Source of the DNA: Octopus vulgaris
Lineage: Eukaryota
Length of the DNA stretch: 64,000 nucleotides
Direction: 5' to 3'
NCBI GenBank assembly: GCA_951406725.2
Contig: OX597825.1
Coordinates: forward strand, 27,714,001 to 27,778,000
The position numbers and the translations under genes were made by a program. Positions 1,161 through 59,800 of this stretch are shown piece after piece. Numbering within the stretch: the first letter of the stretch is position 1; each line of letters opens with the position of its first letter. The notes beneath the pieces were generated by a model. That model had not been told where the DNA came from, did no database searches, and worked only from the letters and a program-made list of their open reading frames with translations.

Positions 1161-1246
1161 GTAGGTCCCGGGTTGATTCGGGGTTAACCACAGTAAGTAA
1201 GGTACTCAATACATAGCAGAGTAAAATTAATTTATTATATAGAAGG

Positions 1247-1297
1247 AGCTTCTACAGGACTAGTACTGTTTCATTCAAGAGAAATCTTCAGGAAGCT
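1247..1297 (-). ncRNA. Type I hammerhead ribozyme (minus-strand copy)
   Basis: Reverse complement of 3150-3200: AGCTTC-CTGAAGA-T(TTC tctt GAA)T-GAA-ACAG tactagtc CTGT-A-GAAGCT. Confidence 0.8.
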
Positions 1298-1738
1298 ATT
1301 TAACAAGAATTGTATTAGCATTTATACATTTAGGCAGGTTTAAAGGAGTGGTGGTGGGGGACTTTTTGGGGGTAGGCATAGCGCAAAATATCATACTTGG
1401 GGGAGTGGTCAAGGAGTCAGTGGTAAGTTAGATGAAAGAATAGATAAATAAAAAAATAAAAAAATAAAAAATAAAAAAATAAAAAAATATAAAAAAATAA
1501 AATAAAAAATAAAAAAATAAAAAAATAAAAAATATAAAAAATATATATAAAAAAATATATATAAAAAAATTTTGTATGCGTATAAATGCATGTAAGTATG
1601 GATGTATGGATGTATGTATGTATGTATACGTATGTATGTGTGTATGTGTGTATGTATATATATATGTGTGTATATGTGTTTGTGTATGTATATATATGTG
1701 TATGTATGTGTGTGTATATGTATGTGTGTATGTGTATG

Positions 1739-1800
<62 letters not shown>

Positions 1801-2049
1801 TATGTATCTGTATGTAGGAGTATATATGTGTGTGTGTGTATGTATATGCGGGTATATATATATATATGTATATTTATTGGTGTATATGTATAGACTAGCC
1901 TCCTAAAGTGTAGACACGAATCTGTAGGTACGAGTACGTATGTGTATATACGTGAACGTATGTAGATGTTTGTATGTATGAATATAACGCGTGCGTACGT
2001 GTATGTGTATGAGTGTACGAATGGGTGAATGTACGTGCTAATGAGTGTG

Positions 2050-2141
2050 CGTGCGGGAATGAGTACTTGCCTTCTAGTAGACAGACAAATGGACATGCAG
2101 CCATTGCCAGGATTCTTAGCCCTAGCGATCAAAGATAACAA
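2050..2141 (-). pseudogene. Possible remnant of the Penelope-like ORF C-terminus (Cys motif after the GIY-YIG domain)
   Basis: Two minus frames give LSLIARAKNPGNGC and CLLEGKYSF. This resembles the I..RA.PY..G...C.LCL.EK..I end of PLE ORFs. It lies upstream of the tail-bearing arm on the same strand. Confidence 0.4.
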
Positions 2142-2680
2142 AAGTAATAAATGAAGATAATAAAATTAAAATTAGGGAATGGGCCTGTATTGGATTGTAT
2201 ATATATATATGTATATGTATATTTGTATGTATGTATGTGTGTATGTGTAGGTATGTATAGGTACACATGTGTATGTGTATGTGTATGTATATATGTGTGT
2301 ATGTATGTATGTGCACACATGTATATATATGTATGCGTGTATATGTTTATATATATATATGTGTACATAGGTGTATGTGGGTGTATGTATATATAGGTGT
2401 AAATATGTGTATATAGGGAACTAGGTGTGTTGTGTGTGCATGAGTGTATGTGCGTATGAATATATATTTTTATGTGTATATATGTATGTGTGGTCGTGGG
2501 TATATATATATATATATATATATACATGTGTGTATGCGTGCATGCATGGGAGTGAGTGTATGCATATATACGTGTGTGTATGTGTAGACAGGTATAGGCA
2601 TGTGCATGTGTATAAATTTGTATATGTGGGCGGGTGTATGTATGTGTGTATGTAGATATGTATGTATGTGTGTACATATG

Positions 2681-2720
<40 letters not shown>

Positions 2721-3149
2721 TATGTGTGTGTGTATATATATGTGTATGTATGTATGTGTGTGTAGATACGTATACATGTGTGTATAGGTATAAGTGAGAA
2801 TCTCCTTATTTACCTATAACTCTATCCCCCCTTTTTTTATATATATATTTTTTTATATATATATTTTATATATATATTTTTTTATATATATTTTTTTATA
2901 TATATTTTTTATATTTTTTATTTTTTTATTTTTTTATTTTTATTTTATTTTTTTATATTTTTTTATTTTTTTATTTTTTGTATTTTTTTATTTTTTTATT
3001 TATCTATTCTTTCATCTAACTTACCACTGACTCCTTGACCACTCCCCCAAGTATGATATTTTGCGCTATGCCTACCCCCAAAAAGTCCCCCACCACCACT
3101 CCTTTAAACCTGCCTAAATGTATAAATGCTAATACAATTCTTGTTAAAT

Positions 3150-3200
3150 AGCTTCCTGAAGATTTCTCTTGAATGAAACAGTACTAGTCCTGTAGAAGCT
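3150..3200 (+). ncRNA. Type I hammerhead ribozyme
   Basis: Helix I AGCTTC(3150-55)/GAAGCT(3195-3200); core CTGAAGA 3156-62; short helix II TTC/GAA; GAAAC 3175-79; helix III ACAG/CTGT with a palindromic ACTAGT in the loop; GUA cleavage triplet, cut predicted after 3194. Confidence 0.82.
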
Positions 3201-3214
3201 CCTTCTATATAATA

Positions 3215-3256
<42 letters not shown>

Positions 3257-3257
<1 letters not shown>

Positions 3258-3403
3258 ACGACGAGATTCTCAGTTTTTCTGTACCAAATCCACTCACAAG
3301 GCTTTGGTCGACCCGAGGCCATAATAGAAGGTGCCACACGGTGGGGTTGAACGCAGAACCATGTACTTGCGAAGCAGCTTCTTACCACTCAGCCGTGCCT
3401 GCG

Positions 3404-3404
<1 letters not shown>
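3257..3404 (-). mobile_element. tRNA-derived SINE family A, 5' fragment
   Basis: Matches the head of 7107-7510 (accaaatccactcacaagg...ttaccac.cagcc). Has A/B-box-like motifs. Confidence 0.8.
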
Positions 3405-3454
<50 letters not shown>

Positions 3455-14143: not shown

Positions 14144-14690
14144 ATTTGGCTCAAAAGCAAATAGCAAGGCCATGTAGGGAGACATGGAGTTAAGTACAGG
14201 GTGGTGTTCATGTAAAGAGTTCAGGCCACTTGAGGTCCAGGGAGGCTTTGAACAAAGCGGTCGTCGGCATCTTCACCATCTCGTCTGGCAGCTTGTTCCA
14301 CGGATCCGCAACCCGGACGGAGAAAGCTCCTCTCCTTCGATTGAGATGAAATCGTCGCAGGTAGAGCTTTTCGGAATGACGCCGCAGCTCTTTCGAGAGG
14401 TTACACTTCCCGCTTATGATGTTGTGGGCGAGAATGAGATCACCACGGCGGCGGCGTTTTTCAAGAGAACAAAGGTCGAGCGTCCTCAGCCTTTCTTCGT
14501 AGGACAAATTTTTGAGACCATGAACCATGCGGGTAGCCAGCCTCTGGACTCTTTCGAGGTGCTGTATGTCTTTGAGGAGATAAGGAGAAGAGGCTTGAAT
14601 CCCATACTCCAATATGGGTCTCACCAGCGTGACATAGAGTGGCAGGAATATGGCTGCTGTGAGCATTCCGAATGACCGTCGAATCAAAAA
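14123..14690 (-). mobile_element. CR1/L2-group LINE 3' end (ORF2 C-terminus with (TAAC)n tail)
   Basis: ORF 14208-14687: LYVTLVRPILEYG..ASSPYLLKDIQHLERVQRLATRMV..LSYEERL..LEKRRRRGDLI..FSVRVADPWNKLP. Has a short 3' UTR, a (TAAC)n tail, and (TA)n flanks. Confidence 0.92.
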
Positions 14691-14692
14691 CA

Positions 14693-14743
<51 letters not shown>

Positions 14744-14760
14744 TATGTATATCTTACAAC

Positions 14761-32152: not shown

Positions 32153-32198
32153 AACACAACGTTTCAGTTGATATACCCTCCAGCCTTCTTCAGGTGTC
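32153..32198 (-). ncRNA. Minimal type I hammerhead-like motif in a PLE-type remnant
   Basis: Reverse complement: GACAC-CTGAAGA-AGGCTG gagggtatat CAACT-GAAAC-GTT-GTGTT. Helix III is a palindromic AACGTT and helix II has mismatches. Confidence 0.65.
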
Positions 32199-32311
32199 TC
32201 TGGGAAATTTCGACCAGGAAACCCTAGGTAGCCGCATTAACAAGGTCTGCATTTTTCATTATCACATTATATTTATTCTTTTCGCTGACCAATGGTCTTC
32301 TTCCTATACAA

Positions 32312-58210: not shown

Positions 58211-58808
58211 GTTTAAAATCCATTATACTGTACTCGATTTTTACCTTAAACTTGTTCGTTTATTCCACCATTTAATTGACATCGGTTGAGCTACCATTCG
58301 TTAAGATTCTTATTAACTGAAACAGATTACCATTCTCAACGTACATTGTGTGTTCATTCTGGCAACTAAGTTCAATCTGAAAGATAAATGACATAATCTA
58401 AACTATATCTAAAACATACTGTTTGATATTCTTCATTTTAACTTGGGCTTCTTGCAATGGGTGTCTTCTTTGATGTATTTCCTGGATTTTATTTATGGAA
58501 ACATTTGAACTCCTTCTTCCATCGAAGTTTTTAAACAGCGATCGCCTTTATACATAATTACTGTTATAGTTTTGTCAAAAGCCCAGAACTACTTTCTACT
58601 CTGAATCTTTAATGACTATCAATAATATTGTTCCTTTACGTCTTCTCACTTACTTTCAAATCTTGGTCAGATCTAAGGCAAATATACATTTCAGACGCGC
58701 AAACAGGATCACATATAAATGTATACGTACAGGTATGTATATATATGTGTAAATATATGCATGTATATGTGTGTGTGTATGTATGTAGATACATATATAC
58801 ATACATAT

Positions 58809-58872
<64 letters not shown>

Positions 58873-58979
58873 GAAATTCGGGGTGAGTACTTGATAATTA
58901 TAAGCACCTGTGTATACCGTTTGGTGGTGTAGGTGGTGGAGTAAATTGATCAAAATAAAAACATGATGCCAAGGATTCA

Positions 58980-59057
58980 GCGGTACATATGTTTCGGGCC
59001 TTTATTAGACAGATTTATAACAATGCATAATGTATGTCTGTGGCCTTCTTCAGCCGC
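58980..59057 (-). ncRNA. Type I hammerhead ribozyme (minus-strand copy)
   Basis: Reverse complement of 59209-59286. Confidence 0.8.
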
Positions 59058-59208
59058 GCACAACAGCTTCCACAAGGACATGTGTTACATCAAAAATTCT
59101 TGGTTGGGGATGCAAATCCTCTCATTCGCGTACGACATAATGCGGCAACAGCATAGAGTTGAAGCGTCCATCTCTTTCTTCTCTCAGTCCTTGTGGAAGC
59201 TGTTGTGC

Positions 59209-59286
59209 GCGGCTGAAGAAGGCCACAGACATACATTATGCATTGTTATAAATCTGTCTAATAAAGGCCCGAAACATATGTACCGC
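59209..59286 (+). ncRNA. Type I hammerhead ribozyme with extended helix II
   Basis: Helix I GCGG/CCGC; CTGAAGA 59213-19; helix II GGCC..ACAGA...TCTGT..GGCC; GAAAC 59271-75; palindromic ACATATGT helix III; GUA triplet, cut predicted after 59282. Confidence 0.82.
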
Positions 59287-59316
59287 TGAATCCTTGGCAT
59301 CATGCTTTTATTTTGA

Positions 59317-59369
<53 letters not shown>

Positions 59370-59800
59370 GTACTGATGTAGGCGTCCATGTTGAGTCTAA
59401 GTTGTGTTGGAACAGGAATGGAGGTATAACGTCGTCAAAACTAGTGATCACTACAAACACCATGATGTTGACTAGTAGCTTGATTTTTTTCACCCTTGAT
59501 ACATGTGATATTGCACAATCCTCAGGTTGACACCCAAACAATTTGTACGTTCGCATTGAAGCTTCCGGCACGAATGCCAAGCAGTAATGCATGCCGTTTA
59601 CAAATTTCTGGCAGCGTGAATTGCGTCAAAGTGCTGCTTTACACACAGCCGGTGCCCAAATGACTTTACTATACTGTGTAGTCGACGAAATATACAAAAA
59701 AAAAACCTGAAGTAATACAATTTGCTTTGGCCACTACGGGAGCTATGCAATGTCTGACATGATTAACTAGGAGGTCATAGTCTTTTTCTTTCCCTTGGCG
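59370..59800 (-). mobile_element. Internally deleted Tc1/mariner (maT/DD37D-like) transposase remnant
   Basis: Minus frames give HALLLGIRAGS... and VSRVKKIKLLVNIMVFVVITSFDDVIPPFLF, matching the K.P..IMVFG.I.S.G..MPPF.F motif. Confidence 0.65.

Follow-up and report, generated by a model that had tools for sequence, protein, structure and literature searches.

An Octopus vulgaris fold-back with paired hammerhead motifs as a probable single insertion of an abundant PLE family

The 446 bp at positions 58873 to 59318 of a 64,000-nucleotide stretch of Octopus vulgaris DNA (the window) are very probably one insertion of a young, high-copy Penelope-like element (PLE) into (TA)n, in which a 314-nt, 5′-truncated 3′ end of the family on the minus strand stands head-to-head with a 132-nt, tail-less inverted copy. 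The family is abundant, reads on the minus strand, has two 3′ ends, and carries an intact type I hammerhead motif. This anatomy suggests a PLE origin and the target-primed insertion of two truncated cDNAs. A fold-back is routine for PLEs; the oddity here is a 41-nt loop insert that bears no sign of conserved structure.

Layout of the fold-back and its family

The element is bounded on both sides by (TA)n runs (Table 1). Its inverted arms are identical at 131 of 132 positions, as a preliminary description of this DNA had it; the single mismatch pairs 59305 with 58961, and the right-arm letter at 59305 is absent from the listed family variants. The arms are separated by a 107-nt spacer, and a 75-nt overhang is found on the left side only. 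No target-site duplication is readable in the (TA)n flanks. The whole window is AT-rich (26 to 37% GC per 2 kb) and contains many microsatellites.

Table 1. Coordinates of the fold-back features in the window
Feature	Positions	Strand	Basis
Left (TA)n target flank	58820-58872		Sequence
3′ end of the high-copy PLE-like family, 314 nt, 5′-truncated at 59186 (107 nt upstream, terminal repeat with hammerhead, tail)	58873-59186	-	Contigs crossing 59079; loose ends behind 59186
One-sided 3′ tail, 75 nt, AC-rich, on left arm only	58873-58947	-	Contigs entering (TA)n at two places
Left arm: terminal repeat, native context	58948-59079	-	Arm comparison
Native type I hammerhead motif, predicted cleavage after 58984	58980-59057	-	Motif, descriptor
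Spacer, 107 nt: family sequence upstream of the hammerhead, no protein match	59080-59186	-	Contigs, protein searches
Right arm: second copy, inverted, more deeply truncated, tail-less, 132 nt	59187-59318	+	Arm comparison, contigs
Inverted-copy type I hammerhead motif, predicted cleavage after 59282	59209-59286	+	Motif, fold, descriptor
Loop-2 insert, 41 nt: weak 5-bp hairpin in two registers and A-rich 8-nt bulge	59225-59265	+	Fold
Helix III, AC-AUAU-GU, perfect 8-nt palindrome ACATATGT; predicted 8-bp intermolecular duplex	59274-59281	+	Cofold
Right (TA)n target flank	59319-59370		Sequence

The stretch is contained in 20 of 24 listed public runs, which come from 12 studies and carry four organism labels (one run may be the window's own source). 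None of these runs is recorded as RNA, though X8 may be. Contigs of four runs (X1, X5, X16, and X8) were aligned to a reference covering 58873-59212, including 26 bases of the right arm. The aligned contigs numbered 2441 in X1 and 785, 584, and 18 across the other three runs, mostly with at least 95% identity (1838 of the 2441 in X1). Summed contig depth, which is not a copy number, reached 10^5 to 10^6 in X1 and X5 and 10^4 to 10^5 in X16. From these contigs, the family appears to be very abundant and young. Exact family words were absent from public metagenome and prokaryote contigs.

Contigs pass the border between left arm and spacer, at 59079, without a joint (record 30, for example, spans 58987-59132 with no other letters) but depart from the reference at 59186. 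Among the rows listed, 10 contigs in X1, four in X5, three in X16, and one in X8 have loose ends behind this position with differing sequence beyond it. Thus, the family reads on the minus strand, the copy in the window is 5′ truncated, and the right arm represents a second copy in inverted orientation. No contig bridges 59186/59187 among those listed (32 pieces out of 3845 and 24 loose-end rows out of 128, with 26 right-arm bases in the reference); a rare junction common to several copies may exist there. The fold-back is most probably a by-product of insertion and no mini-element. Family copies enter (TA)n at 58945-58949, which corresponds to the right-arm end, and also at 58874, so that the family has two 3′ ends, 75 nt apart. 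In all four runs, loose ends also lie behind 59063, pointing to a subfamily that diverges just upstream of helix I and keeps the remainder.

The same observations bear on a MITE-like or fold-back DNA transposon that would move as a 446-bp hairpin. Inverted arms of 132 bp with 99% identity and a TA-rich insertion site would suit such an element, but the repeats are not terminal, with a 75-nt overhang on one side, and the family contigs run past 59186 into other sequence, none of those listed bridging the junction; we consider this origin extremely improbable. A splice acceptor (a plus-strand pyrimidine tract and CAG before the right arm; compare the D. virilis intron that ends at helix I) was also rejected, because the site coincides with the inversion junction, where the family goes on with other sequence.

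A second fold-back, at 1161-3218, derives from an unrelated hammerhead family. Its arms (1231-1541 and 2906-3216) are 93% identical and carry hammerheads at 1253-1291 (minus strand) and 3156-3194 (plus strand) in which helix II is short and the pattern resembles that of the Hydra clade; a tail of ~70 nt is confined to the left arm, and the 1.4-kb interior consists of simple repeats. We counted its matching layout and tail in favor of the PLE insertion reading. A tail motif common to both fold-back families was not significant (424 of 2000 shuffles). Directly after this fold-back lies a SINE-like repeat (3255-3405), which seems to resemble a common cephalopod repeat. A third family is represented at 32153-32199 (minus strand) by a minimal hammerhead with no helix III loop and with helix II mismatches, probably a decayed PLE end. 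The window also holds a 181-aa open frame at 14208-14753 (minus strand) with no Pfam family, whose product is reminiscent of the C-terminal region of the reverse transcriptase of CR1/L2-type LINEs.

If the PLE reading is right, known PLE biology suggests how the 446-bp structure could have arisen. The element's endonuclease would nick AT-rich DNA, reverse transcription would begin at either of two sites to give tail-bearing or tail-less ends, and two prematurely ended cDNAs would then be joined at the center. PLE insertions are described as 5′ truncated and biased toward (TA)n, with a truncated copy next to them in inverted orientation and a tail on one side (Craig et al. 2021, PMC8557442), and pairs of minimal hammerheads 100 to 700 bp apart on opposite strands have been reported (Cervera and de la Pena 2014, PMC4209133). 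For an anole PLE, nicking of AT-rich DNA and two reverse transcription start sites that bound the tail have been described (Frangieh et al. 2024, PMC11167929).

A coding region that would identify the family was sought in the element frames by Pfam and three protein searches, and no PLE reverse transcriptase or GIY-YIG frame was matched in the 107-nt upstream part. Pfam found no family for any of six element frames, and one upstream frame, read through its stop with X, gave no candidate in a protein search. A cysteine-rich match to another upstream frame (P0001, E value of 2.6e-4) is irrelevant, and a 114-aa plus-strand frame at 58945-59289, which crosses the inversion junction and is without a homologue, was treated as an artefact. 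An ATG-initiated frame of ~33 codons at 58977-59084 (minus strand), also with no Pfam family, spans the native hammerhead.

Since the defining PLE protein was not found, membership rests on anatomy. Traits of EN+ PLEs present here are a type I hammerhead in a terminal repeat near the 3′ end, a 5′ truncation with an adjoining inverted copy, a tail at one end (75 nt, against the 30 to 40 bp described in PMC8557442), and a dispersed, multicopy family in AT-rich or microsatellite targets. The Hydra clade is characterized by RWK and DKT motifs, a CxCX5C linker, and an endonuclease without CCHH (PMC8557442). Its (TA)n insertion and canonical hammerhead are both seen in the octopus family; since they occur in other clades as well, they are not diagnostic of that clade. 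Naiads lack a canonical hammerhead and have a core or half core at most, whereas the motif here is complete, and no word match was found to the listed Naiad consensus sequences.

A special case of the preferred reading is a nonautonomous PLE derivative, retrozyme-like or deleted, that has no coding region and is mobilized in trans. The frames of the 107-nt upstream part are without a protein match, and, among the rows listed, the sequences at the loose ends behind 59186 are alike for ~15 letters before they diverge from run to run. Animal retrozymes have, moreover, been argued to derive from PLE terminal repeats (bioRxiv 10.64898/2026.07.22.740005). On the other hand, just 107 nt are visible upstream, and two Hydra-clade elements have well over 100 nt between stop codon and hammerhead, as judged by eye (PMC8557442); the head-to-tail tandem units typical of retrozymes are absent from the window, which has no direct-repeat copy. 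We hold this derivative to be possible but less likely than not.

Hammerhead motif and predicted folding

Each arm carries one type I hammerhead motif, so that two copies lie on opposite strands, each in the order GCGG / CUGAAGA / 51 nt / GAAAC AUAU GUA / CCGC. In the plus-strand copy, helix I (GCGG/CCGC) is formed by 59209-59212 and 59283-59286, CUGAAGA occupies 59213-59219 and is followed by an extra A at 59220, the helix II strands are GGCC at 59221-59224 and GGCCC at 59266-59270, and GAAAC (59271-59275) precedes the cleavage triplet GUA (59280-59282). The palindromic helix III carries ACAUAUGU in the hammerhead of each arm. The canonical core of CUGAAGA, GAAAC, and GUA named in the preliminary description was found at the type I positions, with CUGANGA, GAAA, NUH, and helices I to III all present. 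That description spoke of a single hammerhead, but there are two copies, and the one in native context runs on the minus strand from 59057 to 58980. The motif, with its additional base following CUGAAGA and its palindromic helix III, agrees with the consensus published for PLEs, CUGANGAH...GAAAN-palindrome-NUH (PMC4209133).

A hammerhead descriptor that required helices I, II, and III, composed with the target known, matched exactly the two arm copies in the window and did not recover the window's two other hammerhead families. Among 500 block-wise dinucleotide shuffles, none gave a match with a palindromic helix III and four gave any match. In an Rfam search, no match in the window reached gathering score, and the 52 weak matches in 58500-59700 included no hammerhead family; weak miRNA matches were dismissed as microsatellite artefacts. 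The variant table lists 18 variable positions of 314, none in stems, and no variant of at least 2% at the 37 core and stem positions (P = 0.098, not significant alone). The complete motif, comprising core, helix I, GGCC strands, and palindrome, is fixed in the family.

In an unconstrained cofold, two copies of 59205-59292 formed a double hammerhead (-38.2 versus 2 × -13.2 kcal/mol) with an intermolecular helix III probability of 0.95; the monomer took a hammerhead shape with a weak helix III (probability of ~0.17). These predictions bear out the earlier suggestion of a PLE-type, self-complementary helix III suited to dimer action. The motif is genuine and is predicted to act only as a pair. 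It would be the terminal-repeat ribozyme of the family, with cleavage after GUA predicted to require either the pairing of two copies of the same strand through ACAUAUGU or assistance from the element's protein.

Longer transcripts fold differently. The fragment 59200-59300, which had been proposed for a cleavage assay, is predicted to misfold, with an alternative hairpin capturing the core and an intermolecular helix III probability of 0.02. The probability of helix I is 0.11 in a whole-arm fold, and in the full 446 nt of either strand (about -285 and -277 kcal/mol) every hammerhead pair has a probability of 0. Because the two motifs are on opposite strands, no cis dimer can form at the fold-back, and a read-through RNA is predicted to be a 132-bp duplex that buries the ribozyme, so the copy at this locus is likely inert. 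Dimer cleavage by PLE hammerheads is described in PMC4209133, with low activity in vitro, and reportedly by Lunse et al., as cited in reviews.

The motif may instead be decayed and catalytically dead, through the insert and a mismatch at the base of helix II, in a family that spread anyway, like Naiads without canonical hammerheads. Position 10.1-11.1, canonically a G-C closing pair, holds an A.C mismatch here unless a G-C pair forms next to a bulged C, and the G-C pair has a predicted probability of 0.02. Misfolding is predicted in the native context, the anole PLE ribozyme cuts only with the element protein and is dispensable for insertion in vitro (PMC11167929), and eight Naiads have split half cores 35 to 50 nt apart (PMC8557442). 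However, the core, helix I, the two GGCC strands, and the 8-nt palindrome are all intact, none of the listed variants falls in them, and non-G-C pairs at 10.1-11.1 are common in the listed Hydra-clade motifs (PMC8557442). A dead motif is unlikely, in our estimate.

The loop-2 insert and its AATAAA

Helix II had been described as ~50 nt long. The core halves are indeed separated by 51 nt, but pairing in the best fold amounts to 4 + 5 + 3 bp: the GGCC/GGCC stem of 4 bp, a 5-bp hairpin in competing registers with the 8-nt A-rich bulge, and a weak tip. The idea of a structured long helix was not supported. The distal 42 nt have a z score of -0.57, with equally stable folds in 359 of 1000 clamp-preserving shuffles, and the insert is as variable as other sequence (3 of 41 versus 15 of 236 positions; Fisher P = 0.74). 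Its commonest variant, at 59255, accounts in the three large runs for 35%, 37%, and 29% of the depth and disrupts an A-U pair in both registers, with no partner change listed; the remaining two insert variants sit in the terminal loop. No helix II covariation is seen in the variant table, a test of low power, given the youth of the family and the loss of rare variants from contigs. Helix II probably works as a GGCC/GGCC stem of 4 bp, with the 41-nt insert most likely carried along as a tolerated passenger, the simplest reading being an ordinary A-rich loop 2 that received a hairpin insertion.

Relatives with a long helix II were sought in public collections with relaxed patterns, which gave 1 + 39 + 1 loci. 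L001 was rejected, as it is without helices I and III. Among the other 40 loci, a helix I of five pairs is confined to L002 and L011; these loci are unrelated in sequence, and their number is near chance expectation. As observations in their own right, L002 (1645-1750, minus strand) is hammerhead-like and combines a long branched helix II with a ACAUAUGU helix III and a helix I of 5 bp, in unrelated sequence at the end of a contig that encodes a 463-aa frame with a cysteine cluster; L011 (600-675, minus strand) is hammerhead-like, has ACAUAUGU and a helix II of 31 nt, lies in AT-rich DNA that contains microsatellites, and may be the end of another animal PLE.

The AATAAA that had been noticed within the ribozyme is present at 59260-59265, in the A-rich bulge of the insert. 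The hexamer stops 17 nt short of the predicted cleavage site, and a U-rich tract lies ~20 nt beyond the site. Such spacing of AATAAA to the cut, with a U-rich tract downstream, is the textbook arrangement for poly(A) addition. One could thus suppose that the insert is functional, with an A-rich bulge four pairs from the core replacing loop 2 and AAUAAA serving as a poly(A) signal, so that cleavage and 3′-end processing would compete at nearly one site. Besides the spacing, the variant table contains no AATAAA variant of at least 2%, and the best fold places the bulge at the normal position of loop 2.

Several observations weigh against this supposition. An AATAAA is expected by chance in ~8% of 51-nt stretches of the window, the insert varies like its flanks, and the bulge and the U-rich tract would gain just -1.5 kcal/mol by pairing with each other. 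Hammerhead cleavage leaves a 2′,3′-cyclic phosphate, an end that poly(A) polymerase cannot extend directly. The PLE hammerhead of Culex, an ordinary one, also has AAUAAA in its short loop 2, and other listed rows have similar A-rich loops (PMC4209133). No passage on polyadenylation was found in the available part of PMC2377424. A functional insert is accordingly improbable in our view.

A bolder version, which we rate as more improbable still, holds that the loop-2 expansion was fixed together with a poly(A) signal and that dimer self-cleavage and polyadenylation would compete, switching the RNA between translatable mRNA and transposition template. If that were true, long-loop hammerheads could be a widespread class overlooked by descriptors that limit loop 2 to 10 nt. 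A new mechanism would be indicated only if poly(A) coupling were demonstrated.

Comparison with known systems

The modest value of the locus is in its ribozyme, which keeps a complete core with a helix II region of 50 nt, about twice the longest of 56 listed animal PLE motifs. It offers a simple construct for asking if PLE hammerheads need a loop-2 contact. Because published descriptors would miss the long-loop form, counts of animal hammerheads may err low, as may claims of PLE families lacking hammerheads. Our literature search found no work that deals with the family or with long-loop hammerheads of animal PLEs; such variants may be listed in Lunse et al. 2017 and Arkhipova et al. 2017.

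As an insertion, the fold-back resembles those described for EN+ PLEs by Craig et al. 2021 (PMC8557442), which share the head-to-head inverted copy, the one-sided tail, the (TA)n target, the hammerhead near the 3′ end, and the high copy number. It differs in the length of its tail (75 nt, against 30 to 40 bp) and in the coding region, of which none is seen here. Identity with Hydra-1_Obim, Naiad_Obim, or Naiad_Ovul was excluded by a word search and by-eye comparison with that source.

As a hammerhead, the motif shares with those of metazoan PLEs (PMC4209133) the type I topology, CUGANGA with one extra base, a short helix I, a palindromic helix III, and an A-rich loop 2, and its GGCC...AAUAAAGGCC frame recurs in the Culex row. 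Helix II with its loop spans ~11 to 23 nt in the 56 motifs listed there, as read from the rows, compared with 50 nt here. The descriptor of that survey limited loop 2 to 10 nt, so the long-loop form was undetectable by it. The Hydra-clade hammerheads in PMC8557442 share the (TA)n target, a stem III built as an inverted repeat of 3 to 4 bp around a loop of 1 to 3 nt, and a first helix II pair that is often not G-C, and the distance from cleavage site to end is ~35 nt in Hydra-1_Obim (by eye) and 36 nt here, to the arm end. In the listed motifs of that clade, which is itself defined by protein motifs, loop 2 differs in having 3 to 10 nt.

Long inserts in helix II or loop 2 are found in the spike-moss elements PLE-X1_sMoe and PLE-X1_sTam (53 and 48 nt by our own count; PMC8557442). 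These plant elements are rDNA targeted, and Naiads have incomplete cores, whereas the octopus motif is of animal type, its core is complete, and its helix III is a perfect palindrome. The anole Poseidon element PAc (PMC11167929) has, like the octopus family, an AT-rich target, an AC-rich tail region, and two alternative 3′ ends that define the tail; unlike PAc, whose ORF begins inside the hammerhead, the ATGs in or after the octopus motif soon run into stops.
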